Counted from the stretch's first letter, positions 5,663 through 62,270 are shown. The stretch: DNA of 64,000 nucleotides from Parcubacteria group bacterium (GCA_028286565.1 JAQBRH010000004.1:33951-97950); one strand, 5' to 3'. Notes: a model not told the origin generated them from the letters alone. Numbers and translations: made by a program.

Positions 5663-5752
5663 ATAATGATCTCCTGTGGCAAAGCCACGGTTGGGTTTCT
5701 AAATGCATTATACCCGAAATACCAATAAAGTCAACCAGAGGACGCAAGGGTA

Positions 5753-23736: not shown

Positions 23737-24137
23737 TATACCTTAGGCATTTCAGCTATAAATGCAAACAATTCCCAAATATGACCATTAATATCGCGAA
23801 ATGCTTTTCCATACATAAAAGCTTCAGATTCGGGACTATCCTTTGTTACGTCTACAGCACCGGACGTAGTAGCTTTTTCAAAGAAAGCATCTACTTCACT
23901 CTTTGAATCAAACTGTAATGCAATGGTCAGGTTATTATTGATTGCTTCCGGATTACCTCCGACAAAAGTTGCAAATCGCTTGTCCTCCAACAACATAACA
24001 AAAGTATTTTCGTTGATCTTTGCATTAGTGGTATCTTCACTGCTGAATTGTTCATTCTTCACCATTCCTAGCGATGCAAAGAATGTATCAGTGTCAGCAA
24101 CATTTCTAATCGGCAAGTTAATGTATGTATTTTTCAT
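23736..24137 (-). CDS. VOC/glyoxalase-bleomycin-resistance family protein
   Basis: INLPIRNV...FFASLGM and ...HIWELF VOC-type beta-alpha-beta-beta-beta modules. AT-rich coding sequence. Confidence 0.6.
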   Translation of the reverse strand: MKNTYINLPIRNVADTDTFFASLGMVKNEQFSSEDTTNAKINENTFVMLLEDKRFATFVGGNPEAINNNLTIALQFDSKSEVDAFFEKATTSGAVDVTKDSPESEAFMYGKAFRDINGHIWELFAFIAEMPKV

Positions 24138-24163
24138 ATATAAAAGTATATCAAGAAAACCTC

Positions 24164-24197
24164 CAGCTGGTCCTGTGGGACGAAGGTGGAACCATTC
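24164..24197. repeat. Array repeat R6
   Basis: ccagctggtcctgtgggacgaaggtggaaccatt. Confidence 0.8.
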
Positions 24198-24209
24198 TAG
24201 GGCAGGTCC

Positions 24210-24572
24210 CTATTCCTCAGGTTCATCATTGATACCCAGCTTTGATTGAATAGCTTGTCGTATCCACCACGTCGCATAGGTTGAGAATTTATAATCAGCT
24301 TTATAATCATATTTTTCCACGGCTTTAAAAAGGCCCAGGTTACCATTTTGAATAAGATCCAATTGAGAAACATTCTGCTCGTTGTCTTTGTATGCTTCCG
24401 CAATCTTCGCTACTAATCGCAAATTCCCCTTGGCTAAAAGATTCTTTGCTTCATCATCATTATTTTCCTTAATTCTTTTAGCCAGCTTTTTCTCTTCTTC
24501 ACCGGAAATAAGTAGATATGCTGATATCTCATTAAGGTAATCTTCTAATTTTTCCTGTTCAGTTTTTTCCAT
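24210..24572 (-). CDS. Truncated sigma-70-like protein (regions 1.2-2.4 only; possible fragment or decoy)
   Basis: NLRLVAKIAEAY...LDLIQNGNLGLFKAVEKYDYKADYKFSTYATWWIRQAIQ matches RpoD region 2. Only 120 aa; lacks regions 3-4. Confidence 0.6.
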   Translation of the reverse strand: MEKTEQEKLEDYLNEISAYLLISGEEEKKLAKRIKENNDDEAKNLLAKGNLRLVAKIAEAYKDNEQNVSQLDLIQNGNLGLFKAVEKYDYKADYKFSTYATWWIRQAIQSKLGINDEPEE

Positions 24573-24623
24573 GATATGTATCTAAACGTTTATTCACTAG
24601 GATGCTTTCCCTTTAAAATCATA

Positions 24624-24660
24624 AGAGCCAGCCATGTGGGACGATGTTGGAACCTTTTTT
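24624..24660. repeat. Array repeat R7
   Basis: agagccagccatgtgggacgatgttggaacctttttt. Confidence 0.8.
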
Positions 24661-24662
24661 AA

Positions 24663-25193
24663 CTATTCCTGAGGAAAACCATACTTCTCACGTATTTCCC
24701 TAGTGTATTGCTCTATTGGTTCTAATCCAATCTCTGCCCTTCTTTCGTCAACGTGTTTTTCATCTTCTATAGGCTCAGGTCTGAAGTTTCCATCCCTATC
24801 TCTAAATTGAGTTCCGTAAACCTGTAAACCATGCTCACTTACTCGTATTCGATCTTCTAAGTACGCAACATGTTTTCTATCTACCTCCTCGGGCGATTCT
24901 GCTTTCATAAGTTCAAGACACTTTTTTTGAAAATCTTTATCGTGATCTGCGTGTTGAATTAATAGCCATGCATTACGAACACCTATTGCTCCAACTTTAG
25001 ATGTAGTGGGCCATCCGATTTCAACAACAATTTCCTTTAATCTTTCTGTATTTCTTTTATCAATTTCGTTATCCCAATACTCATCATCTACAAGATTCTT
25101 TTCTCGCATATCTTGGTCTACCTTAACCATTGTTTCTAATTCAGAAGCGATCTCTGGATTAAGCATGACTTTAGGAGTTTCTTCATTATTCAT
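24663..25193 (-). CDS. Hypothetical protein
   Basis: 176 aa, acidic. GWPT...NAWLLIQHADHD motif. No family assigned. Confidence 0.5.
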   Translation of the reverse strand: MNNEETPKVMLNPEIASELETMVKVDQDMREKNLVDDEYWDNEIDKRNTERLKEIVVEIGWPTTSKVGAIGVRNAWLLIQHADHDKDFQKKCLELMKAESPEEVDRKHVAYLEDRIRVSEHGLQVYGTQFRDRDGNFRPEPIEDEKHVDERRAEIGLEPIEQYTREIREKYGFPQE

Positions 25194-25200
25194 ATACCTA

Positions 25201-25246
25201 GAATATCACGAGCTGGGCCCTGGGGTACGAAGCTGGAACCTATTTT
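25201..25246. repeat. Array repeat R8 (promoter-half plus core)
   Basis: gaatatcacgagctgggccctggggtacgaagctggaacctatttt. Confidence 0.85.
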
Positions 25247-25827
25247 ACAGCTATAAAGTGAAAAACATGCCAGTGCTTCGTCTCTCCCGCAGCAGTTTTG
25301 CCATCTTTTTCTTCTTCACTGAACTCCGCAATCTTTAGTCCCTGCAGCAATGACTCCGCCTCTTCTTTAGTCTGAAATGTCATATCTCTACCTTCTACAT
25401 TCCACTCATCTCTATCTCCGAAGAATTGTCCGACAAATACACCGCCTGGTTTTAACGACTTAATAATTGATTGAATAACATCATTAAATTTTCCTTTAGA
25501 AGTAAACGGTAAAGAATACTGAGCGTTAATCAGATCATACGCACCTTCTACAAAATCAAAATCTTCAAAAGAACTTATTTCGTATGTGACTTTTTCGGCG
25601 GGAAGTTGCTCGAGCACTTCTCCAGAGACTGGGTTCTTATCGACAGCTGTAACATGCTCAAATCCTACAGACAAAAGATACCTCGTATCATTAAGTGCCC
25701 CTGATCCAAGATCCAATGCTTCATGTTTGTCTTGAACTAATTCGACAGCGTTAACCAAAGAAGGTCTTGGTGGCGTTTCTTTAGTTTGTTCGTAGTATTG
25801 CTCCCAGTTATGTTCACTCATGGGCAT
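25240..25827 (-). CDS. Class I SAM-dependent methyltransferase (TehB-like)
   Basis: LDLGSGALNDTRYLL motif I, VTAVDKNP, LKPGGVF. Confidence 0.7.
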   Translation of the reverse strand: MPMSEHNWEQYYEQTKETPPRPSLVNAVELVQDKHEALDLGSGALNDTRYLLSVGFEHVTAVDKNPVSGEVLEQLPAEKVTYEISSFEDFDFVEGAYDLINAQYSLPFTSKGKFNDVIQSIIKSLKPGGVFVGQFFGDRDEWNVEGRDMTFQTKEEAESLLQGLKIAEFSEEEKDGKTAAGETKHWHVFHFIAVK

Positions 25828-25837
25828 ATGATATCAG

Positions 25838-25878
25838 AATTTCGCTAGCTGGCCCTGGGATGAGGTTGGAACCTTTAT
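25838..25878. repeat. Array repeat R9
   Basis: gaatttcgctagctggccctgggatgaggttggaacctttat. Confidence 0.8.
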
Positions 25879-26399
25879 ACCGTAACAATCTTCAGATCTG
25901 CCGTATCAATTGTGCCTTTATAGAGAATATGAGGAACCAGATGGAATCCCATGGGGATCATGCCTGCTTCAATAGTTTCCTTATAGTATTCAGTGGTTGC
26001 CTCCGGTAGATAGGCATATTTCTCGACTTCATTCGGATCATAGGCCAGATAATCATCTTCTGGAGGAGGAGTCCCCTTTTCGCGTGGGGAGTTTAAATAC
26101 ACCACAGTCTTTTCTAGCTCTAGCTTTTCTGCAGGGATCTCAACATAACTTAAGGCGAAACCTTTTCCCAACTTCCGCATTTCCCTATCAACAATGCTCG
26201 GATTCAATGCACTCAGATGAAGTACGTCGTTCCACAAACAACCCAGCCTCTTTATTCTTCTTTGCAACAAAATTTCACGGCCTTCGTACTTCTTTACATG
26301 TGCCTGATACGCATCGGGGAAAATGTTTTTAAGCGTATTCAAGGGATATAGTACGGTTCCCTGCATTCCTTTGGGAACTATATGATAGACGAATGCCAT
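25875..26399 (-). CDS. Hypothetical protein
   Basis: 174 aa. No repeat between it and the downstream isochorismatase gene, suggesting a two-gene unit. Confidence 0.5.
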   Translation of the reverse strand: MAFVYHIVPKGMQGTVLYPLNTLKNIFPDAYQAHVKKYEGREILLQRRIKRLGCLWNDVLHLSALNPSIVDREMRKLGKGFALSYVEIPAEKLELEKTVVYLNSPREKGTPPPEDDYLAYDPNEVEKYAYLPEATTEYYKETIEAGMIPMGFHLVPHILYKGTIDTADLKIVTV

Positions 26400-26429
26400 A
26401 TGGGAGTAGTGTAACAGAAATTCGTTTAA

Positions 26430-26936
26430 TCAAAACTTGATCAAGAGATCCGCTGTATTTTCATAAAAAGACGTATGGGCCTTAAACCAGGTCTTATTTT
26501 TACGAGACAACCTTCCCTCCTTGTTGCTTACACTAGCTATAAGACTCTCTGCCGTTGAAACTTTATAGCCTCTTTTCATTGCTCCTATTGCTGTATCCTG
26601 AACGCATGCATTGGCATTAACTCCAATAATAATGAGGTTCTTTATCTTTAGGCTACGAAGAATTTTATCCAGATGGGTTTTTGTGAATCCACTATTGCTC
26701 TCCTTAATGATTATTTCTTCCGCGACTTTGCGAATTAATTTTTCTAATATAGGAGTTGTTCTTCCTCTGTCTTTGCCTCCAGCTTTATACTCAAAAACAA
26801 CCACCGGAATATTTTCTTTTATGCATCTACGAAGGATCTTACCTTGCTCTGCAATTAATTTTTCCTTAATATGAGCAGGAAAATTCTTTAGGAAAAAATC
26901 CTGCATATCCATCACAACGACTGCGGCATTCTTCAT
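26430..26936 (-). CDS. Isochorismatase-family cysteine hydrolase
   Basis: VVVMDMQ, conserved Lys, and the GVNANACV catalytic Cys motif. Confidence 0.7.
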   Translation of the reverse strand: MKNAAVVVMDMQDFFLKNFPAHIKEKLIAEQGKILRRCIKENIPVVVFEYKAGGKDRGRTTPILEKLIRKVAEEIIIKESNSGFTKTHLDKILRSLKIKNLIIIGVNANACVQDTAIGAMKRGYKVSTAESLIASVSNKEGRLSRKNKTWFKAHTSFYENTADLLIKF

Positions 26937-26960
26937 ATTTTAAGTATACCAGCACAAGTT

Positions 26961-27000
26961 TCGCTAGCTGGCCCTGTAGTACGATGTTGGAACCTTTGTA
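26961..27000. repeat. Array repeat R10
   Basis: tcgctagctggccctgtagtacgatgttggaacctttgta; followed (minus strand) by TGGTATACT extended -10 and a leaderless ATG. Confidence 0.8.
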
Positions 27001-27042
27001 GAAAAAGAAAAAGACCGCCTGTAAGCGATCTGCTAGTCAGAA

Positions 27043-27450
27043 TCACAGTCCTCCAAAAACATGGAGACTGTCCTTTCCCGAAGAACCTCTTGGATAGTAT
27101 TCCAGCGTGAACTCCACTGAATCTGGCATGCCTTCTGGAAGATGAGCGATCTGGTTTCCACGATACGGGATACCCCGAAAGAAGATGTTTATGAGCGATG
27201 TCAAAGCGTCAGCGATCTCTTCTTTTGAAAATTGGAAACGCTCTGAGTCAGAGATTTCACGCGGATCAGTTCCCCTCTTTGTTTCCTTCCCTATTACCTC
27301 CGCACTTATTTCAACTTCGAGGATTTCGGGTGGTACAAAGGAAGACCGAGCGATCCTGTAAGGAAAAAATACATGCCCAGTTCTCCTTGCGATGAATTCA
27401 GCAATCGCATCACCGAATTGCTGGGCAGCAATTCTTTCGTAATCAGGCAT
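27043..27450 (-). CDS. Hypothetical protein
   Basis: Start re-placed at ATG 27450 (MPDYERIAAQQ). The listed ORF starts at a TTG. Confidence 0.45.
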   Translation of the reverse strand: MPDYERIAAQQFGDAIAEFIARRTGHVFFPYRIARSSFVPPEILEVEISAEVIGKETKRGTDPREISDSERFQFSKEEIADALTSLINIFFRGIPYRGNQIAHLPEGMPDSVEFTLEYYPRGSSGKDSLHVFGGL

Positions 27451-27527
27451 AACACCTTCCAAGGCAAGATGTGGTCTGTGGTAGAACTTATCTGGTAATT
27501 AAAATACTACTTATTACAGTAAAGTCA

Positions 27528-27562
27528 AGTTGCTGGCCCTGTGGCACGAAGTTGGAACTTAT
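27528..27562. repeat. Array repeat R11
   Basis: agttgctggccctgtggcacgaagttggaacttat; followed (minus strand) by TTGACT-N16-TATTTT promoter-like sequence. Confidence 0.8.
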
Positions 27563-27565
27563 ATA

Positions 27566-27590
27566 AAAACCCAGGATTACCTGGGCGTTG
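27566..27590 (-). terminator. Rho-independent terminator at the 3' end of 27577..27792
   Basis: CCCAGG-ATTA-CCTGGG hairpin followed on the minus strand by TTTTTAT; overlaps the stop codon. Confidence 0.5.
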
Positions 27591-27792
27591 TAGAAGGCGC
27601 TTTGTAATTCGGCTGCGCCTCTGGTAGATCAAGCAGTGTTCTAGCCACAAGGGCACACACAAGAGCACAGAGAACAAATGTAACTCTCGTACTCTTTTGC
27701 TTGAATGTTACTCCCTTCATGAAAAGCAGGAGGGCGAGGAGGCCAAGGATCAAAGAAGCGGCAAGCGGGTGTGCAAACATGTGTTTCTCCAA
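27577..27792 (-). CDS. Hypothetical small membrane protein
   Basis: 71 aa, two hydrophobic helices, RBS GGAGA upstream. Confidence 0.4.
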   Translation of the reverse strand: MEKHMFAHPLAASLILGLLALLLFMKGVTFKQKSTRVTFVLCALVCALVARTLLDLPEAQPNYKAPSTTPR

Positions 27793-27864
27793 AAGATGTG
27801 AAGATTCTACTGCCAGGGGTCGTTTCTGAATATAAATTACAACTAAAAAAGTCTTAAGTCAAAT

Positions 27865-27900
27865 CTGCTGGCCCTGTGGTACGAAGTTGGAACTTTTTAA
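27865..27900. repeat. Array repeat R12
   Basis: ctgctggccctgtggtacgaagttggaactttttaa; followed (minus strand) by TTGACT-N17-TAATTT. Confidence 0.8.
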
Positions 27901-28382
27901 AGCTTCCCTCTTAATTCCAAGGCTCTTTCCATTATCCTTTCGCCTCTCTTCCCCCAATCAAAGTATTGCTTATATTCCTTAGGATCAATAAGTTTTATTT
28001 CTTCTATCTCGTTATCTGGATCTTTCACAAAATCACCATAAGGTTCAACTATACAAACACTCCTTGTCTGCCTAATAATTCTCCCCGGCTCATAAACATC
28101 TTGGAAACCTATTAGCGATTGGCTGAGAACTCGCATATTAGTTTCTTCCCTTACCTCCCGGATCACTGCTTCTTCATATGTTTCTCCTGGCTCTATTCCT
28201 CCGCCTGGCGGCATCCAGCCACTTTTTGGGTGATGGACTACTACCATTTTATCTCCATAGAAACAGAAAGCATGAACCCCTTGGAGCAACTTCCCTTCCA
28301 TATCAAATAACGGGTCTGATTCTTTATATATAATTTCAACTTCCTGACCCAATCTGTTTACATGAATAGATTTAATTTCCAT
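27897..28382 (-). CDS. NUDIX hydrolase
   Basis: NUDIX box GGGIEPGETYEEAVIREVREETNM. Confidence 0.75.
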   Translation of the reverse strand: MEIKSIHVNRLGQEVEIIYKESDPLFDMEGKLLQGVHAFCFYGDKMVVVHHPKSGWMPPGGGIEPGETYEEAVIREVREETNMRVLSQSLIGFQDVYEPGRIIRQTRSVCIVEPYGDFVKDPDNEIEEIKLIDPKEYKQYFDWGKRGERIMERALELRGKL

Positions 28383-28390
28383 CAGTTAAG

Positions 28391-28435
28391 ACTACCACGA
28401 GCTCGCCCTGTGGTACGAAGTTGGAACCTTTTTAC
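28391..28435. repeat. Array repeat R13 (promoter-half plus core)
   Basis: actaccacgagctcgccctgtggtacgaagttggaacctttttac. Confidence 0.85.
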
Positions 28436-28516
28436 AACCTTCTATTATTGACAACATCTAGGACATGATTCATATTGAACCCAGAGTACAACCCAACAAC
28501 GAATAGGAGACAAGAC

Positions 28517-28768
28517 ATGTCGAACGAGAAGTATTTCCGAGATCTGGCACCTGGGGAATTGTTTTCCTTCCAGTCGCCCACTTCCGATCCAGTCGTGGAG
28601 CCGGCCTCATACCTCGTCAAACTGAATGAGGATGAGTATCTGATGGAGCGAGGACATGGAACATTGCGCTTCATGAACTTCGAAAAGTCTCGCACTCTAG
28701 TAGTGAGCCACGGCATGGAAGACCAGGCCAATTTCGAACAGATGCTCGCTGCTTGGCCAAGGGAATAA
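28517..28768 (+). CDS. Hypothetical protein (opposite orientation inside the array)
   Basis: RBS AGGAGA 7 nt before ATG 28517. Preferred over the overlapping minus-strand ORF 28432..28791 on composition and RBS. Confidence 0.4.
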   Translation: MSNEKYFRDLAPGELFSFQSPTSDPVVEPASYLVKLNEDEYLMERGHGTLRFMNFEKSRTLVVSHGMEDQANFEQMLAAWPRE

Positions 28769-28782
28769 TCCCCGGCCCCTAC

Positions 28783-28830
28783 TTCCCACACATTCGCTTA
28801 ATTGAAAGGTGTGGGGATTTTCATAACTAA
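28783..28830. terminator. Bidirectional terminator between convergent genes
   Basis: CCCACAC...(19 nt)...GTGTGGG hairpin followed by GATTTTCAT. Confidence 0.45.
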
Positions 28831-28863
28831 AATAATCGAACGCCTGGTACTAAGTTTTAGAAT

Positions 28864-29367
28864 TTAGAGAACACACTTCCTAAGGACATCTGCAGCAATG
28901 CGACAATCTTCAAGCGCATCGTGCGACCCTCTTGGTTTTGCACCAAAAGCTTGAAAAATATCTTCAGAATTCATCCCTCCCTGGTAGCCGGTTTTAAGTA
29001 GATGAGTGTAAGCGATAGGCCAAATATCCAACACATGATAGTCATACTGTTCTTCTCCATTTCTTGAAGCTGTAAGCGTTCTTAAATGCTTCATGTCGAG
29101 CTCAGCCACAAATGAAGCGATGATCACATTGCTTCCGAATCTTTCAAAGAATTCTTGTCCTACTTCTGCTTGAGATGGAGCACCATTAAGCATCTCTTGA
29201 GTGATGCCGGACTTTACACTTGATCTCCCCTGCAGATTTGCGTGTATATAACTCACAAAAGAATCTTTTTCAGCCAGAGTGTCTTTATCTAGGAGAATGG
29301 CACCTATTTGTTTTGGTGCTCTCATTCCTTCAAAATCTATAACCAAAATATCTTTGGGGAATTTCAT
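28864..29367 (-). CDS. DEDDh-type 3'-5' exonuclease domain protein (RNase T/oligoribonuclease-like)
   Basis: VIDFEG N-terminal acidic motif and a C-terminal HDALEDCR motif. Confidence 0.55.
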   Translation of the reverse strand: MKFPKDILVIDFEGMRAPKQIGAILLDKDTLAEKDSFVSYIHANLQGRSSVKSGITQEMLNGAPSQAEVGQEFFERFGSNVIIASFVAELDMKHLRTLTASRNGEEQYDYHVLDIWPIAYTHLLKTGYQGGMNSEDIFQAFGAKPRGSHDALEDCRIAADVLRKCVL

Positions 29368-29370
29368 ATC

Positions 29371-29420
29371 TCTAGAATATCACGAGCTGGCCCTGTGGGA
29401 CGAAGTTGGAACCTTTTTAG
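29371..29420. repeat. Array repeat R14 (promoter-half plus core)
   Basis: tctagaatatcacgagctggccctgtgggacgaagttggaacctttttag; fills the whole 49-nt stop-to-start gap. Confidence 0.85.
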
Positions 29421-29842
29421 CTGTTTGACTCTTTGAAATCTCCAAATGCTTTACGGATAACGTCAAGTAAGGGCTTCTTATCTGCATAAACATATTCTTT
29501 GCCCACCCTTCGAACGAATTCCTCTGGACCAACTGGCCATCCATAAAATTCTAAGGTCTCTCGATTTTGTGTTAAAAGATGAGAAAGAGTTTCAGGTTCA
29601 TATACAAACAAAGCTCCTTGGGTACCAATTAAAGTTGTGTCTCTATTTGTGAGTAGAACAGGAATTAAGCCATTTTCTTTTGCATGATCAATTTCTTCTT
29701 GAACAGAAATATGAAAATATCTCTCCATAGAATCAACGGGTAAATATCCTACGGATTTGTGAGGGCCGAGATTGCGAATGTGTTCAAGGGCTTCTAACCT
29801 TTCTTTCTCAAATAGATCAGATGCGGTTGGTTCTTGCTCCAT
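29417..29842 (-). CDS. Hypothetical protein
   Basis: 141 aa, AT-rich coding. Last gene of the array before the tRNA-Gln region. Confidence 0.45.
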   Translation of the reverse strand: MEQEPTASDLFEKERLEALEHIRNLGPHKSVGYLPVDSMERYFHISVQEEIDHAKENGLIPVLLTNRDTTLIGTQGALFVYEPETLSHLLTQNRETLEFYGWPVGPEEFVRRVGKEYVYADKKPLLDVIRKAFGDFKESNS

Positions 29843-29859
29843 AGATTAATACTATAACA

Positions 29860-30074
29860 AAGTTCGAGTCCCTATTGGTTGCTGCCGATCAGGGACTCGC
29901 TCCTTACAGGAACAGGACAGAATTCGTCAGGGACTCGGTCACTCATAAAATTCTCCTGAATTTTTGTGCGACCCCGCCTCGGCCCGCCGGCCTCCGGCTT
30001 TCGAGTCCGCGCGACGCTTCGCATGTGCGAAACTGCGCCTGATCGGCAGCAAAACACGCTGCGCTTTCGTTTTG
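29860..30074. repeat. Mosaic of direct and inverted partial copies of the tRNA-Gln 3' end (T-arm/acceptor)
   Basis: 19-nt direct copy gctgccgatcagggactcg at 29881-29899 (identical to 30075-30093). Inverted T-loop fragments at 29862-29873 and 30003-30012. Inverted copy cctgatcggcagcaaaac at 30038-30055 forms an 18-bp hairpin with the tRNA 3' end. Confidence 0.75.
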
Positions 30075-40300: not shown

Positions 40301-40581
40301 GCGGACTGAAGAAATGTCTAAACGACATTTCGTTGGGTGCTGACGGCCGGAGCGATGTCCCGCAAGTATGCGGGACCGCGAGGCGGGGTCGCGAAATTTC
40401 TGAGCGGCGGCGAAGAAATATTTGTGACCAGCACCCGAGTTGTTTATCAGCCGCGGCATGACAAGCTGCGTCACTGAATTCTTGCCTCTAGAACTTTAGA
40501 TTCTAAATTAGAACTTGACATTATATCATAAGTATGATTTACTAACTTCAGTTAGCACCCAAGCCCTCACAGGAGCAAAAC

Positions 40582-40767
40582 ATGGACTACGAGAAAGTAC
40601 TTGAAAAGGCAATGGAAGAAATCAGCTTCGGAGGCCACAATGGGGGCGAAGGGCAGAAAATTGCCTTTGGGCTCCTCGCACTGTCCTCTGCCGTTGTAGA
40701 AGCCTCAAAGAATCAGGTGCGCGCTGCAGAACTCGCTCTGCAAGCCGCCCAGCAAAGCTCTAGGTAG
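40582..40767 (+). CDS. Hypothetical small protein
   Basis: RBS AGGAG 8 nt upstream of ATG. 61 aa, Ala-rich helical. Terminator downstream. Confidence 0.45.
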   Translation: MDYEKVLEKAMEEISFGGHNGGEGQKIAFGLLALSSAVVEASKNQVRAAELALQAAQQSSR

Positions 40768-48378: not shown

Positions 48379-48858
48379 CTAGCAGATAGGGTCTCCGGTA
48401 CCGATAACACCGTTCGCCTTTGATGCTCCGGTGTTGTCTACACACCAGTTACCTCCGGCTCCGGGAAGAGTCGCTGCAACTGCATAGGCCGTTGCAGGTT
48501 GTCCGACTACACCAAACGATACACACTGAGGGTTGGACAAGTTTGGCCATGCGGCGGTTGCGAAGTAGCCGTTCATGCCTGATGCGCCGTCTGTGAAGAG
48601 CACGGTGTTCGTCGTAGCAGCGGCACCGCTTGGGCAAGCTCCATACGCTGACTGAGTACCATAATTTCCATTAGTATCGTAGAAGATCTCTGCTGCCGCG
48701 CGGAGGCCGGCGAGCTGAGCCTTGATCTTCGCATCGTTACCCTTGTTTCGGGCGGTGTTGAGCGATGCGAGGACGACTGAAGAAAGAATACCGATGATGG
48801 CGATAACCACCAAGAGTTCGATGAGGGTAAAACCTCGATTAGCTGATCTTTTTGACAT
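48379..48858 (-). CDS. pilA: Type IV major pilin
   Basis: [23 protein letters not shown] class III signal. 159 aa. Confidence 0.75.
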
Positions 48859-48934
48859 AATTATTATTACTTTTAACTACCTTAGAATTATATACCCATA
48901 CCAGCAACTTTTGTGCCGGCATGTGGATAACTCA

Positions 48935-56055: not shown

Positions 56056-56100
56056 CGTGATAAAAGTATATCATGTGCCACTCTTAGGTATGATAGACGT

Positions 56101-57149: not shown

Positions 57150-57212
57150 ATATCTCTTGAGACGCGTCTCGCAGATGATAATTACCTGCGGCCTCTGCCT
57201 ATCTCGTAGCTT

Positions 57213-57242
57213 GACAGATTGGTACTACGTATGCTATAATAC
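57213..57242 (+). promoter_or_regulatory. Near-consensus sigma-70 promoter
   Basis: TTGACA-gattggtactacgtatgc-TATAAT (18-nt spacer), 50 nt upstream of GTG 57293. Confidence 0.6.
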
Positions 57243-57292
57243 TCCCATACCGTGAAGCAACCCGCTTCACTCTGCCCTTTCAAGGAGGTCCT

Positions 57293-57571
57293 GTGGATGC
57301 TTTCATTGGTCTTGCGACCGTCATCTTCGCCCTGTGGCTCTCCCTTTTCGGGCTCGCGGTCGTACTGCAGCAGCAGGCCGTGTATCTGCGCATAAGCCGC
57401 CGCCTGGCCACGTACTTCGGCCGGCTGATCTCTCGCCTCGTGCGGAGATTGGCTCGGTTCCTTGGCCGCCATGCCTGGCGCGGGACGAAGTACCTGGTCC
57501 GACAGGCGGGCCTCGGCATCCGAGCACTCTGGAGACACCGAGAGAGGGCCGCTCAGGGCCGCGTGCCCTAG
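57293..57571 (+). CDS. Hypothetical small protein: N-terminal TM helix plus Arg-rich basic C-terminus
   Basis: GTG start with strong RBS AAGGAGG, directly downstream of the consensus promoter and a 5'-UTR hairpin (GTGAAGC-AACCC-GCTTCAC). Confidence 0.5.
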   Translation: MDAFIGLATVIFALWLSLFGLAVVLQQQAVYLRISRRLATYFGRLISRLVRRLARFLGRHAWRGTKYLVRQAGLGIRALWRHRERAAQGRVP

Positions 57572-57693
57572 AGAGGAGACACTCTTTCCAAGTCTCGCCC
57601 CGCATCACTGCGGGGCTTCTTTGTATCCATATAGACAAACTCGTATGGGGCGAGTACTATCCTCGAGAGATCGTTCACCCTAGCCCCCCGCTC

Positions 57694-58068
57694 ATGTCCA
57701 CGAAAATACACGGCTCGATCGTCCGTACGCTCTACGCGAATGCGCACTCCGTCGGAGTCAACGTCTTTATGGATCAGCAATACAAATACGGCTTCGAATT
57801 CGTCATTCGCGAAACCGGCGAGAGGATCCTCCGAACAAAGCCGTTTCTCCTGAGCCAACATGTGACAGCCTGGATAGTGAACGACTTCCTTACACAGGTG
57901 CGGCTCGGCGTAGAAAAGAAGTGCGCCGAACAAGGGATACGCCCTTACACTCACTTCGGAGTCGGCGCCTTCGATGTCCTTGATGAGCTGGCGATCGAAG
58001 GGCTGTACTTCGACGCTGTCCAGCAGCTCGTCCAGGGCGCAAACTCGACTGCTTCGCAGCCCGCCTGA
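57694..58068 (+). CDS. Hypothetical protein
   Basis: In frame with the long listed ORF 57334..58068, but the upstream part has an atypical Pro/Arg/Gly-rich composition. ATG 57694 chosen; start uncertain. Confidence 0.4.
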   Translation: MSTKIHGSIVRTLYANAHSVGVNVFMDQQYKYGFEFVIRETGERILRTKPFLLSQHVTAWIVNDFLTQVRLGVEKKCAEQGIRPYTHFGVGAFDVLDELAIEGLYFDAVQQLVQGANSTASQPA

Positions 58069-58069
58069 T

Positions 58070-58100
58070 CGTCCGAACTTCGGTTCGGCTTTTTTATTTT
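58070..58100. terminator. Bidirectional rho-independent terminator
   Basis: CCGAAC-TTCG-GTTCGG followed by CTTTTTTATTTTT. Confidence 0.65.
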
Positions 58101-58143
58101 TATAAAGAAAAAGACCCGAACATTGTGCTCGGGCCTACGGCGG

Positions 58144-58455
58144 TCAGAGGAAGGCGTACCTGTTGAATATCTCCGCCCAGAAGGGTCCTTTGTTGAAGAC
58201 GGGCTGGATCACCCCATCTTCCCCTCTCTTCACGGACATGGCGAGCACTTCGCGCGTCTCCGTGAGCGTCAGATTAGGGACACAGAGTGCGTGGATCATG
58301 TCACCGGGGCGAAGTTCGATCGCCACAGCCCTCGGGAGCCACACGACGAATCCGTCGAGATCCTTGATGGAGGCCTCCTCACCGTCGATCCTGAGGGAGT
58401 GAATCTCGAACCTCACCTTGACCACAGAAACAGAATTGCAGGCAACGATTTTCAT
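58144..58455 (-). CDS. Hypothetical small beta-rich protein (TOBE/PRC-barrel-like?)
   Basis: Start re-placed at ATG 58455 (MKIVACNSVSVVKVRFEI...). Weak similarity only. Confidence 0.4.
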   Translation of the reverse strand: MKIVACNSVSVVKVRFEIHSLRIDGEEASIKDLDGFVVWLPRAVAIELRPGDMIHALCVPNLTLTETREVLAMSVKRGEDGVIQPVFNKGPFWAEIFNRYAFL

Positions 58456-58821
58456 CGGTCGCACCGGTTCAAGGGAAGAAAAAACGACTCTGGCATGAGA
58501 GTAACACACCAAAAACTACCTGTCAACTGCCCCGCTTCTTCCCTGCCTCGGCTACTTCTTATCCTTGTCTCCCTTTGCCTTCTTCGGCTTCTTTACTTCC
58601 TTGCGTCGCGAATTATTTCCTTTGGCCATAAATTTTTATTTAAAGTTATTGGATAAGTATAGCAAAAAATAACTTATGGCCCGAGCTGTTGGGTTAACCC
58701 GAACTTGGATAATGGATGATTACAGCTCGTTTTATATCACTTCTTCTATATTTCGAAAAACACCATTATCGCAGTTAGCAATCTATATTCGGGTTATTAA
58801 TGCTTACTCTGAAGTTGTGAA

Positions 58822-59127
58822 TTAGGCGTGATTTCTATCTTTAAGTTTAAATACAGAAATTGTAAAAATTACAGCTCCTACAATATCTAGGATGTGCCAA
58901 GTCTCTTTTGAAAAATAGAAAGGTGAAATTGGATTGAAAATAATCATTAAACCAATAAAAATCCAGAACCAGATTTTATTACCTAATTTATTTGACAGAT
59001 ATGCCAAGTACAAGCTGACCCCAGCCACTATCCACCGAAGAACTTGGTAAAAACTATATGGATGTGTACCAAGTGCAAGGATAAGAACTACAGCTACTAT
59101 CAATCTTAGCCCTGTATTTTTTGTCAT
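58822..59127 (-). CDS. Hypothetical membrane protein
   Basis: Start re-placed at ATG 59127 (MTKNTGLRLIVAVVLIL). AT-rich coding. Confidence 0.45.
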   Translation of the reverse strand: MTKNTGLRLIVAVVLILALGTHPYSFYQVLRWIVAGVSLYLAYLSNKLGNKIWFWIFIGLMIIFNPISPFYFSKETWHILDIVGAVIFTISVFKLKDRNHA

Positions 59128-59131
59128 AAGT

Positions 59132-60976
59132 TTATGAGCAGGCGCCCTTATAAAGAATCTCCCCGAGACTTTCAGGAATAACGTTTTGCCAATCTTGTTC
59201 TCCGGAAGAACGCCCCGCATTACCGGAAATATCATAAGCAGTAGAGGACAAGGGTTTTACTCTTCTGCCAGCGCAGTCAATTTCAAGATTTTGCTGCACA
59301 GAAGTCTTAAGATTTGTATCAGTCGACTTTAGCCATAAATCAACTAGACTTCCTTTTGAAAAATCGAGAGTTTCAATGTCGAGTCTATATTCCATCGCAC
59401 CGTTATTAGATAGCATCTTCCACCTATCCATCGTTTGTACATATTTTTTATCGTATCTTAGTGCCCGTTTATATTCACTACTTGCATTTTTATAGTCGCC
59501 CTTATTCAAGTAAGTCGCTGCTCTGTCTGCATATAGTCCAGCCAGTATGAAATCATCATTGGGATTAGTATTTTTTTGATACTGACCTACAAAGTCAGCG
59601 GAGCTCATATTAGGAAAATATTTCTGCCGCAGCCCTTCAAGCAAATCTTTGTCTGAGATATTAGTTAGCTCAGGATACGTGTCCCGTATCTGTTCTAAAC
59701 TCATCAAGAATAGATTGTTGCTAAGCACTACTCCAATAGCCTTGCCGTAATCATCAATGGCATTGTCATAATTTCCGACCTCAATATTTACCTTAGCCCT
59801 ATTCTCATAAGTAGAGTACAGAGAACTGAGCATAGGATTAGCCTGATTTTTCGTAATTGCAGTCGTAAAATCACTGATAGCACCGTAATAGTCTTTCGTA
59901 TAATCTTTAGACAAACCTCTATCATTATAGGCCCCAGCATTATCGGGAGTTAACTCAATAACTTTGTCATAGTAAGGAATAGCATCAGAGTACTGTTTCA
60001 AACTGTAAAAAGATTCTGCGATCTGAGCGTAGGCATCAGTAAAGGTAGGGTCATTTTTAATAGAATTCTGGAAGTGTTTAAGCGCGACTGCATTTACCTT
60101 GTCCCTGAATCCACCCGAACCTGAGACGTCAGCCCATGCGGCTTTCGTCAAAAAAGTACCTTTTTGCGCAGTTCTTCCAAGAAGAAATTCAACCAAGGCA
60201 GAGCCTGGATTAAGCTTCAACGCTTGCTGGAGGTCATCAAGGGTTGGAGAAAAATATTTTTCATCGTATGAGGTAAAGGTGCTATAAAATAAACCTCTAA
60301 ACATGTAGGCCAGATAGTCATTTGGGTAATGATTTACAAGAGTATCTAAATCAGTTTTTTGCAAAGCAGTCGGGTTAGAAACTTCTTCTGGTTTTACTCC
60401 GCCTGTATTAAACATGTCCGATGTATCATTCGGATTTATTTTCACACCAATTTCCAGGTCCTTCATAGCTTGACCATAATCCTTAAGAGCCAAATCGGTT
60501 TTTGCTCGCAGACTATAAAGTGAAGCAAGTGAATTTGAAGTTTCAAAAGCAGAATACTTTTTATTTTTAGTTGAAGAATATTTGATTGCTTTGTCTATAT
60601 TATTTTTTATTTCGACATAGTCTGGATCATCGGTCGCAAGTTGAAAAGTCGATTTAAGGGTATATAAAGTAGAAAAGTCTGGGTACTTTACTAAAAGCTT
60701 ATCGATAACACTAACGGCCTCTTCGTTCTTTTTTGAATCTTTTCCATCTTTGGCTAATTCAATGGCAGATAAGACATCCTTGCTTATTTGTTTTTGCTCA
60801 GAGGTTACTGAGTTTTTAATATTGAATTCAGAACTTAATTCAGATAGTCCTATCTTCTCGATAGCTAGACCCTCTGCTTTGACCACATCTGAGTTAGAAA
60901 AAGAGGCTCTGAAAGCAAAGAGGCATCCGACTAACACAATAACTAATCCAATGCCTTTTGCTAAGCTTCGAAACAT
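59132..60976 (-). CDS. Tetratricopeptide (TPR) repeat protein with N-terminal membrane anchor
   Basis: Multiple 34-aa repeats with the W/LG/Y...A...F/Y...A...P pattern (for example AIPYYDKVIELTPDNAGAYNDRG). Start re-placed at ATG 60976. Confidence 0.7.
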   Translation of the reverse strand: MFRSLAKGIGLVIVLVGCLFAFRASFSNSDVVKAEGLAIEKIGLSELSSEFNIKNSVTSEQKQISKDVLSAIELAKDGKDSKKNEEAVSVIDKLLVKYPDFSTLYTLKSTFQLATDDPDYVEIKNNIDKAIKYSSTKNKKYSAFETSNSLASLYSLRAKTDLALKDYGQAMKDLEIGVKINPNDTSDMFNTGGVKPEEVSNPTALQKTDLDTLVNHYPNDYLAYMFRGLFYSTFTSYDEKYFSPTLDDLQQALKLNPGSALVEFLLGRTAQKGTFLTKAAWADVSGSGGFRDKVNAVALKHFQNSIKNDPTFTDAYAQIAESFYSLKQYSDAIPYYDKVIELTPDNAGAYNDRGLSKDYTKDYYGAISDFTTAITKNQANPMLSSLYSTYENRAKVNIEVGNYDNAIDDYGKAIGVVLSNNLFLMSLEQIRDTYPELTNISDKDLLEGLRQKYFPNMSSADFVGQYQKNTNPNDDFILAGLYADRAATYLNKGDYKNASSEYKRALRYDKKYVQTMDRWKMLSNNGAMEYRLDIETLDFSKGSLVDLWLKSTDTNLKTSVQQNLEIDCAGRRVKPLSSTAYDISGNAGRSSGEQDWQNVIPESLGEILYKGACS

Positions 60977-60977
60977 T

Positions 60978-61220
60978 TTATTTTCTATAATAGTTCTTAG
61001 TTCCACTTTTACCCGTATAAGGGTTGTAACTACCCTTACTTGAGTAATTATCGGATTTATAACTATTCGGAGAGGTTTTATAGTAGCTATTTACATAAGT
61101 TCCTGTCGAAGGTTTATAGTACCCATTAACACGAACAGTCTTTGCTTCGACTGAATGAAACGCTCCCAAACCTAGAGCCAGAATCAGAATCAGAAACCCT
61201 ATAAATACTGAATTTTTCAT
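60978..61220 (-). CDS. Small secreted Tyr/Lys/Ser-rich protein
   Basis: Signal peptide, then YYKPSTGTYVNSYYKTSPNSYKSDNYSSKGSYNPYTGKSGTKNYYRK low-complexity repeats. Confidence 0.45.
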   Translation of the reverse strand: MKNSVFIGFLILILALGLGAFHSVEAKTVRVNGYYKPSTGTYVNSYYKTSPNSYKSDNYSSKGSYNPYTGKSGTKNYYRK

Positions 61221-61360
61221 GGGTTCAATTAATTAACTTATATTCACTATAGACCCCATTCAAAGTAAAGCAAGTCAAGTCAGAACCCGTCCTAATTCTT
61301 TCCTCTTTTCAAAATTTCAAGCAGAGCTCGACGCACTAACGTCACGTAGGCTAGGAGTTG

Positions 61361-61837
61361 TTAAATTCTCCTAGCCACAGTACTGTTCTCATTTTTCAAT
61401 TCAATTTCTAGGAGCTGTTTTCTTTTAATTGATAACTCCAAATCAATTCTTGCTCTTAATTCTTGAGCGATAACTGGCACATAATTTTGAAACGTAAGAA
61501 ATCCAATTCCAGCTTCTTCACAGTGTTTCCTAACATCAATATCACGTTTTTTTGTCTTCGGATTATTATGAGATTCCCCATTTAATTCAATTGCTAGTAA
61601 TGGCTCGAGCGTGCTGATATCAAAGAGTGCAAAATCCACAGACCATCGACTTACGTGCCCTACTGCGTATTTAATTTTTCCAATATACGATCCGTAGACT
61701 GGAGCAATTAATTTCTCGACATGAACTTGTGGGACCAACAGATAATCATTTCCAACTGCCAATTTTAGCTCCTTATACAGAATTCGCTCATTTGTATTTA
61801 GAAGAGGTTTTTGTCTTTTAAACTTCGGTTCAAACAT
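61361..61837 (-). CDS. DUF2726-like protein (PD-(D/E)xK nuclease-related fold)
   Basis: VDFALFD...LAIELNGESH core resembling the DUF2726/NERD-like restriction-endonuclease fold. Confidence 0.5.
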   Translation of the reverse strand: MFEPKFKRQKPLLNTNERILYKELKLAVGNDYLLVPQVHVEKLIAPVYGSYIGKIKYAVGHVSRWSVDFALFDISTLEPLLAIELNGESHNNPKTKKRDIDVRKHCEEAGIGFLTFQNYVPVIAQELRARIDLELSIKRKQLLEIELKNENSTVARRI

Positions 61838-61856
61838 ATATTATGGCCATGCCTAT

Positions 61857-62270
61857 TTAAACTACATAACTCGTATCTTCTTCAAAGAACCCGTACATCA
61901 CGACCCCCGCAGCAATGATTGAAGATACCGCAGCTAATATTGTCCAGACAAGATTTAATTGATTGATTATAGAGATAAGAAGTGAAAAAGTTGAGATGAC
62001 TACAACCAGGGCGGCTAAAATCATAGAGACAATCTTTTTATGACTTGGGGCGACCCTGGAACCATAATACACGCAAGCGGCCGCACTAATTGCCGAAGAG
62101 AATATCCAGTAGTTTATTTTAGCCCAACCCGAGTCAGGGCCAACTCCAGTGAGCCACTGTTGCAAGGAAAAGAAAACATTTGCCAACATACCTCCCAATA
62201 CATAGGTTAGTCCTGCTGTAGGTAAAACAGCTACCCATCGACCTACTACTTTAAGAGTATGTGTGGACAT
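61857..62270 (-). CDS. Hypothetical membrane protein
   Basis: 137 aa, four hydrophobic helices. Confidence 0.45.
   Translation of the reverse strand: MSTHTLKVVGRWVAVLPTAGLTYVLGGMLANVFFSLQQWLTGVGPDSGWAKINYWIFSSAISAAACVYYGSRVAPSHKKIVSMILAALVVVISTFSLLISIINQLNLVWTILAAVSSIIAAGVVMYGFFEEDTSYVV

Follow-up and report, generated by a model that had tools for sequence, protein, structure and literature searches.

A two-gene locus in Parcubacteria that is probably a lineage-specific cassette for an abundant small membrane protein

Two co-oriented genes and their products

In a metagenome-assembled genome of a Parcubacteria group bacterium, we found two co-oriented genes, ORF1 and ORF2, each preceded by a promoter-like element and followed by an intrinsic terminator (Table 1). 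They border on a conserved type IV pilus/competence cluster that comprises pilin, pilC, pilM and comFC. The window, that is, the whole stretch of DNA that was analysed, is 64,000 nucleotides long, and all positions are counted from its first letter. Besides pilM and comFC, the neighbours comprise m134, m122, a DUF6804 gene and a gene for a TPR protein, and the locus directly adjoins an AT-rich island at 58.1-62 kb. For comparison we used L002, the closest locus in a related genome, which carries both genes in the same order and orientation.

Table 1. Features of the locus in window coordinates, with the observation on which each entry is based
Feature	Position	Strand	Basis
Promoter P1, TTGACA-N18-TGcTATAAT	57211..57240	+	12/12 consensus match with extended -10
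5' leader, 46 nt, with 7-bp stem-loop and SD AAGGAGG	57247..57292	+	start inferred
ORF1, GTG start, 92 aa, predicted single-pass membrane protein	57293..57571	+	frame-specific selection; homologue in L002
Hairpin H1, GAGAC-N11-GTCTC, abutting the terminator	57576..57596	+	stem kept in L002
ORF1 intrinsic terminator, 8-bp stem (7 GC) at 57597-57616, then TTCTTTGTAT	57597..57626	+	stem kept in L002
Promoter-like P2, TAGACA-N17-TACTAT, 9/12	57632..57660	+	inside the local conservation peak
ORF2 leader, conserved, without SD (CCTCGAGAGATCGTTCACCCTAG...)	57661..57693	+	alignment with L002
ORF2, ATG start, 124-aa soluble orphan	57694..58068	+	NCBI hypothetical protein JWN89_441
ORF2 intrinsic terminator, stem 58073-58088, then CTTTTTTATT	58073..58101	+	stem followed by T-run

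Comparison with L002 indicates that ORF1 is a genuine protein-coding gene. Its homologue there (P0003, 459-701(-), 80 aa) begins at the aligned position, with ATG in place of GTG, behind the same upstream ttcAAGGAG. In a comparison that is statistically thin (two sequences only, with dS near saturation), pN/pS over the first 63 codons, ungapped, stood at 0.44 when read as ORF1 (Fisher p=2e-4), compared with 1.07 and 1.74 for the two alternative frames; the differences at codon positions 1/2/3 numbered 19/12/31, and the indels, one of 11 codons and one of 1 codon, stayed in frame. GC content by codon position, 0.70/0.49/0.77, matched the host pattern in this frame only, with GC3 (0.77) lying where it does in host genes. 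Frame-specific purifying selection, with the start and ribosome-binding site kept in a relative, is what marks a protein-coding gene, and ORF1 displays it. The sequence-only reading that preceded this work had placed behind P1 a GTG-initiated 92-aa protein with one transmembrane (TM) helix and an Arg-rich tail (RLISRLVRRLARFLGRHAWRG), to be given up if the frame were not conserved as a coding sequence in relatives; the frame stood as proposed, with the tail exact, and L002 keeps its start, SD and frame with pN below pS. ORF1 carries no annotation in the NCBI record, and its protein, P0001, is known only from a Logan assembly. A longer frame of 244 aa (57334-58068), which would make a fusion or frameshift product across ORF1, its terminator, P2 and ORF2, was rejected because a TAG interrupts it in L002 and its GC pattern is wrong.

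The second gene and the clean terminator described earlier were both found in place, the latter facing the convergent terminator of a minus-strand gene (58136-58112). The L002 contig ends within its copy of ORF2, against which dN/dS was ~0.36. Structure prediction by AF2 from the single sequence gave a pLDDT of 50, and a two-sequence model reached 65, with 71-86 in the core, and is usable for the core only. This model predicts an alpha-beta-beta-beta-alpha core (residues ~7-80) and, beyond it, an acidic tail (residues 86-124, net -5) that would be helical, its helices being of low confidence. Upon comparing the fold with three structure libraries, we obtained DUF1508/UPF0339 (YegP-like) at or near the top in each, with no score significant; the Foldseek values, E 0.05 in BFVD and E 0.49 for PDB 6q2z, both fall below significance and come from a moderately confident model. 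At the sequence level, ORF2 gave no match to PF07411 at E up to 10, and hhalign returned a probability of 0.15% against what we take to be the E. coli YegP sequence, which itself matches DUF1508 at E 4.7e-45. The likeness of the predicted ORF2 structure to DUF1508/UPF0339 is hence a fold-level lead only. The fold of that family is recognised by a three-stranded sheet plus helix of about 55 residues, and ORF2 differs from members such as E. coli YegP and Haloferax HVO_2922 by its extra acidic helical tail. Members have been described as stress-induced and dimer-forming (bioRxiv 10.1101/2024.11.21.623966), and a PC4/Whirly-like topology has been proposed (PMC12065111); the family itself is without an established function.

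Signals for transcription and translation

We tested for sigma-70 promoters by the hexamers TTGACA and TATAAT at a spacing of 16-18 nt, and P1 matched in full, with its -35 at 57211-57216, an 18-nt spacer, a TG at 57232-57233 and its -10 at 57235-57240. Upon scanning both strands of the 64 kb, we found it to be the sole 12/12 match, where 0.018 were expected from base composition and the runner-up was an 11/12 match at 5734(-); the sequence-only reading had ranked it first in the window too, at coordinates 2 nt too high. We infer that P1 is strong from the E. coli consensus, extrapolating to a Patescibacteria RNA polymerase. The 18-nt spacer and the GTG start of ORF1 are both suboptimal. L002 keeps P1 in the same place (TTGACA-N17-TGcTATTAT, 11/12), and a comparison of the two species, in which spacer and flanks differ, revealed no conserved operator-like sequence around it. 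The L002 version also looks like an L023 promoter (TTGACAA..ATATG.TAT.ATACCGGCAG), a likeness that we rejected as coincidence because the genes downstream are unrelated.

Judged by the -10 spacing, transcription would start at ~57247. Near the 5' end of the resulting leader lies the stem-loop GTGAAGC-AACCC-GCTTCAC (57252-57270, 7 bp), so the 5'-UTR hairpin of the earlier reading is present, but its folding is unexceptional (z -1.5) and it is absent from L002. There, P1 is followed first by an additional orphan gene for an acidic protein of 114 aa and only then by ORF1, with nothing but ttcAAGGAG shared in front of the start, so that the 5' hairpin does not count among the conserved features of this system. 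In the window the SD, AAGGAGG, occupies 57282-57288, ahead of the GTG at 57293. Among the coding-like ORFs of 50 aa or more in the 64 kb, only ~9 carry an SD-like motif ahead of the start. Among the genes checked, pilM and comFC are leaderless, with a -10 box 6-9 nt ahead of the ATG, and the leader of the pilin gene lacks an SD; the claim that other genes here begin leaderless or behind extended -10 elements was thus upheld for these three in the sense of leaderless or SD-less starts.

The stretch of ~120 nt between ORF1 and ORF2 is the best-conserved DNA at the locus. Identity to L002 peaks at 80-82% over 57547-57650, versus 45-68% in the flanks, which places the peak at about the 75th percentile genome-wide for this species pair. 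The features by which an intrinsic terminator is recognised, a GC stem-loop and a U-run after a stop codon, occur both at 57597-57626 and at 58073-58101, and the first of these begins 25 nt after the stop of ORF1. In L002 its stem is conserved, its loop is different and its T-run is a perfect T6 (TTTTTTGT). Downstream, P2 reads TAGACA-N17-TAGTAT in L002, with both hexamers conserved and a spacer that varies. As a conserved terminator is directly followed by a conserved P2, the simplest reading of these sequences is that the internal hairpin is an intrinsic terminator separating two transcription units, and it is not evidently an attenuator. The hairpin with T-run that had been noticed between the two genes is therefore real, if placed ~9 nt too far to the right, and the role of attenuator suggested for it did not stand. 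Conserved intergenic DNA of this kind could harbour a regulatory site. A hok-type 5'-3' pairing, between UGGAUGC in the start region and GUAUCCA 3' of the terminator, appears in the minimum-free-energy fold of the window sequence; we rejected it because it reaches beyond the likely 3' end of the transcript and is missing in L002.

Architecture of ORF1 and narrow distribution of the locus

ORF1 is predicted to cross the membrane through residues ~4-25 (Kyte-Doolittle 19-residue mean 2.53), after which a conserved juxtamembrane segment, QQQAxYxRxSRRLATY, leads into an Arg-rich amphipathic tail. The tail contains 16 Arg, 1 Lys, 1 Asp and 1 Glu (net +15, pI 12), measures 55-67 aa in the two species and shows a helical hydrophobic moment of 0.8-0.95 in both, with a maximum of 0.95. 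The L002 homologue follows the same design with a net charge of +13 and no Lys, and 11 Arg are invariant between the species. Counted on the two-species alignment, the TM and juxtamembrane segments are 68-81% conserved versus roughly 40% for the tail, and the TM sequence itself is conserved as GLAxVIFALWLSLxG. By the positive-inside rule, the N-terminus should lie outside and the C-terminal tail in the cytoplasm. The conservation of the TM sequence exceeds what a passive anchor would need and, with that of the juxtamembrane segment, suggests specific helix-helix contacts, in self-association or with a partner.

TatA/TatE (PF02416) resembles this arrangement in that a single N-out TM precedes an amphipathic helix, which lies along the cytoplasmic face of the membrane. 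ORF1 differs in its long TM (~22 residues), in an FG that lies inside the TM and not at the hinge, and in a tail that is Arg-rich instead of Lys-rich and acidic, and it matched no Pfam or NCBIfam family, PF02416 included, at E up to 0.1.

Searches for relatives of the two genes, a check that had been called for, yielded only the L002 homologues, so that ORF1 and ORF2 are present in just two related Parcubacteria genomes. A HMMER scan of 1.84 billion representative proteins returned the L002 copy as the sole relative of ORF1, and word-indexed searches of 5.8 billion proteins returned ORF1 itself only and, in a profile search, ORF2 itself and its L002 copy. Two JGI metagenome scans and two of viral contigs gave no relatives, nor did tblastn against phage genomes; tblastn against plasmids gave only noise (E 0.3-0.7), and sequence searches of Pfam, NCBIfam, PHROGs, PADLOC and PDB assigned neither gene to a family. 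Upon searching species-representative genomes with the neighbouring PilM, we recovered 23 syntenic loci. L002 is the closest, with PilM 94% and ComF 75% identical; ORF1 and ORF2, at about 45-64% amino acid identity versus 94% for PilM, diverge far more quickly than the genes around them. The 21 more distant relatives found in this way keep pilM-comFC, some of them also the divergent gene m134, and in them ORF1, ORF2 and any small ORF combining a TM with a polycationic segment are absent. Since its distribution is limited to two genomes, the locus appears to have been added recently, and in this lineage only, next to the pilus/competence cluster.

A putative high-expression cassette and its alternatives

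We suggest that the locus is probably a lineage-specific cassette for an abundant small membrane protein. More specifically, with a probability of roughly 0.55, the ORF1 unit would be a self-contained high-expression cassette whose product serves as an abundant structural or modulatory membrane component, and not as a conditionally released toxin. In the first unit, P1 would drive a transcript comprising the 46-nt leader with its 5' stem-loop, the SD, ORF1 and the gene's own terminator. ORF1 would be made in large amounts, insert with its N-terminus out and its C-terminus in, and associate via the conserved TM and juxtamembrane segment, while its Arg tail of ~60 residues may rest on the anionic cytoplasmic membrane face or on another polyanion, possibly nucleic acid. 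In the second unit, ORF2 would be transcribed mainly from its own weaker, conserved P2, with an addition from read-through of the terminator, and reach a lower level. We counted the rarity of SDs in the host genome, together with the leaderless starts of the core neighbours, in favour of a high-expression cassette. The layout is also that of the E. coli lpp-type cassettes, where a strong promoter, a 5' stem-loop, a strong SD and a short coding sequence are followed immediately by an intrinsic terminator; the likeness is one of layout, without protein similarity, and the abundance of ORF1 is presumed. On the other side of the ledger, a TM joined to a polycationic amphipathic helix is the architecture of pore-formers as well (type I toxins, holins, viroporins and antimicrobial peptides), and the locus borders on an AT-rich variable island and changes rapidly in sequence, as accessory and conflict genes do.

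An unlikely but tenable alternative is that ORF1 acts as a small-protein modulator of a larger membrane machine, such as the pilus/competence apparatus or a sensor kinase, on which its conserved TM and juxtamembrane segment would dock. Parallels exist in the Arg-rich DUF1127 acting on PhoR and in small proteins of the AcrZ and MgrB types. The better conservation of the TM and juxtamembrane segments relative to the tail fits such docking, as does the position beside pilM-comFC and the type IV pilus cluster, and the DUF1127/YjiS proteins, which are Arg-dominated, act at the membrane and bind membrane kinases, provide a precedent (PMC12648545). The latter share with ORF1 an Arg-dominated positive charge at the membrane, but they are 47-54 aa long and have no TM helix, and ORF1 has no sequence match to them. 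Against docking onto the neighbouring machinery, the 21 distant relatives keep PilM-ComF-m134 without ORF1, ORF2 or a positional analogue, indicating that this machinery works without them. Furthermore, signals at consensus level exceed what a stoichiometric modulator usually needs, and no partner can be named.

We consider it improbable that ORF1 permeabilises membranes, as a toxin or holin-like pore former, with ORF2 as its immunity protein or antitoxin, the pair forming a new addiction, defence or lysis module. Phage holins, phiX174 E (91 aa) and class I viroporins (influenza M2, HIV Vpu) are proteins of ~90 aa with one N-terminal TM and a C-terminal domain that is cytoplasmic, basic and in part amphipathic, and ORF1 is likewise ~90 aa long, with one N-terminal TM and a basic amphipathic C-terminus. 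It differs from them in having no phage context, no endolysin and no similarity in PHROG, BFVD or phage genomes, and its gene lies on the chromosome, next to a pilus/competence cluster and in synteny between the two species. Possession of at least one TM and a basic charged C-terminus, by which holins are recognised, is generic and does not discriminate; among the neighbours we found no endolysin, other phage gene or holin family member, and PHROG, PADLOC, viral and phage searches gave no match. The combination of a TM with a highly basic amphipathic tail recalls type I toxins, holins and phiX174 E (PMC12648545), and the Hok/Gef, Fst, TxpA and TisB toxins resemble ORF1 both in their N-terminal TM with a charged C-terminal extension and in being small, poorly annotated, lineage-restricted genes. 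Type I toxins are, however, hydrophobic proteins of <60 aa with short extensions (PMC12648545), as opposed to the 92 aa of ORF1 and the 80 aa of its homologue, with tails of 55-67 aa that are very long, amphipathic and built on Arg alone, under signals of consensus strength that would be constitutive.

The genetic arrangement bears on the same question. Both genes are orphans that evolve fast beside an AT-rich variable island, their pairing is kept in both genomes, and the acidic C-terminal helix predicted for ORF2 (net -5) could neutralise the Arg tail of ORF1, all of which would suit a toxin and its antidote. Yet a consensus promoter and SD on the toxin, without a conserved operator-like sequence at P1 and with weaker signals on the putative antidote, fit that reading poorly, and in L002 a gene has been inserted between promoter and ORF1 with the arrangement otherwise undisturbed. 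No sequestration of the SD was found, and a consensus scan of the minus strand across 57250-58100, which atypical promoters would escape, revealed no promoter-like site or extended -10 from which the antisense small RNA raised in the sequence-only reading could arise. Of the resemblance to small membrane toxins and holin-like peptides claimed in that reading, the TM/basic-tail architecture held; the size, an antisense promoter, SD sequestration and a phage context did not. A broader and, in our view, distinctly unlikely extension would have ORF1 and ORF2 form a new two-component module, either of a ~90-aa Arg-rich pore-forming toxin checked by the DUF1508-like, acidic-tailed ORF2, or of a polycationic tether, anchored in the membrane, with which an episymbiotic Parcubacterium would capture nucleic acid on the cytoplasmic side, next to its pilus/ComFC machinery for DNA uptake.

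Very unlikely is a single operon with regulated attenuation at the hairpin that separates ORF1 from ORF2, where ORF1 translation, a ligand or a protein would control read-through into ORF2. The terminator does sit between two co-oriented genes in the most conserved 120 nt of the locus, H1 would be partly covered by the terminating ribosome, and the window T-run is interrupted (TTCTTTGT), which would permit some read-through. In L002, by contrast, the T-run is perfect; folds of both species showed only H1 and the terminator, with no shared alternative pairing (a test of low power, given two sequences) and so no conserved antiterminator; no Rfam family matched at E up to 10; and a P2-like element with both hexamers, following the terminator, explains much of the conservation. 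Scarcely credible, finally, is the notion that the region 3' of P1 is a structured non-coding RNA and ORF1 a spurious GC-rich frame: overlapping open frames on both strands, a 384-nt transcript that folds somewhat better than shuffles (z -2.97) and the absence of ORF1 from the NCBI annotation would allow it, but the selection is frame-specific with start and SD kept and indels in frame, and the codon-position GC fits host genes in the ORF1 frame only. At gathering thresholds, an Rfam scan of the window returned five tRNAs only, all of them elsewhere, and relaxing the cut-off to E 10 added no credible match. With no Rfam family, tRNA or tmRNA found behind P1, we rejected a non-coding RNA gene there.

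ORF1 is thus a real gene that the GenBank annotation overlooked and, on the cassette reading, probably among the most strongly expressed of its region; its presumed non-toxicity follows the same reading. The many uncharacterised small membrane proteins of the Patescibacteria gain with it a well-delimited family of two members, and lineage-specific proteins of the envelope are suspected to play a part in the episymbiotic life of this group. Beyond a missed gene, a new family and the signals that accompany them, the locus leaves current knowledge unchallenged. Overall, the consensus promoter, SD, terminator and second promoter form a compact set of conserved signals that could help to define promoter and ribosome-binding-site usage, and such signals would be of use in a phylum whose genes are mostly leaderless.

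Coding content around ORF1

ORF1 (57293-57571), which encodes the 92-aa Arg-rich membrane protein, appears to be absent from the NCBI annotation of the source genome, and its neighbour ORF2 has an NCBI name. The only known source of P0001, a protein identical to ORF1, is a Logan assembly. ORF1 is a small gene that annotation has missed. We also considered a long open frame that overlaps ORF1 as a gene, and rejected it: a TAG breaks the frame in L002, the corresponding locus of a sister genome, and its GC pattern is non-coding upstream of 57694. Most likely, this frame is a by-product of codons rich in Arg, Leu and Ala.

At L002, an additional acidic orphan gene lies between the conserved strong promoter and the ORF1 homologue. 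Neither the window nor any other locus has a counterpart of this gene, and it matches nothing in Pfam, PHROG or PADLOC.

Features in the window and at two related loci (positions refer to the window unless a locus is named)
Feature	Position	Remarks
244-codon open frame	57334-58068	passes through ORF1 in a different frame, then through terminator and P2, and continues in ORF2
114-aa acidic orphan gene (MPLIHPSAYLV...)	L002 729-1073	minus strand
Imperfect palindrome TTTGTATCCA/TATAGACAAA	57620-57639	covers terminator T-run and -35 of P2
Perfect 12-nt palindrome GAGACGCGTCTC	57160-57171	within leader of divergent gene m134
Repeated ~60-nt motif GGGTGATTTGAG..ACATCC...AAGCTT.AAAAGC.TT.CTCTTGGTT	L023 17990-18050 and 18550-18620	both sides of 162-aa ORF
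AT-rich island	24000-30000	GC 37-45% vs 52-58% elsewhere
AT-rich island	58100-62000	GC 37-45% vs 52-58% elsewhere
83-aa orphan ORF	28448-28768	TTGACA -35 promoter and SD
61-aa orphan ORF	40515-40767	TTGACA -35 promoter and SD

Palindromes and a repeated motif

The imperfect palindrome, which reaches into P2, the promoter-like element ahead of ORF2, has complementary bases at 7/10 positions in the window and at 8/10 in L002; it could be an operator, or merely the T-run facing an A-rich -35. The perfect palindrome shares its GAGAC/GTCTC arms with H1, the hairpin ahead of the ORF1 terminator, and is not kept in the m134 leader of L002. In L023, the locus of a Nomurabacteria genome, the ~60-nt motif lies behind a promoter similar in sequence to that of L002; it may function as a cis-regulatory RNA, or it may be a repeat element.

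Pilus genes, AT-rich islands and small orphan genes

The start codons of the divergent genes pilM and comFC lie only 45 nt apart (56056-56100), and because each ATG is preceded at 6-9 nt by a -10 box (TGaTATACT for pilM, TATGAT for comFC), the two form a back-to-back leaderless pair. Identity to L002 rises to 96-99%, against a background of ~75%, at 48700-48900. This stretch covers the N-terminal part of a type IV pilin, with its class III signal and its hydrophobic helix, and the region upstream.

Both AT-rich islands probably either arrived by horizontal transfer or are variable regions. The second begins directly after the ORF2 terminator and encodes DUF6804 and DUF2726, an 80-aa Tyr/Ser/Asn-rich protein that looks secreted, and a TPR protein of 624 aa whose C-terminus is Adhesin_E-like. 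One of the two further small orphan ORFs is located within the first island, the other directly after tRNA-Asp. Like ORF1, they pair a promoter that has a TTGACA -35 and matches at 10/12 with a Shine-Dalgarno sequence, AGGAG, and so are unlike the leaderless core genes. Canonical signals may mark lineage-specific small genes here.
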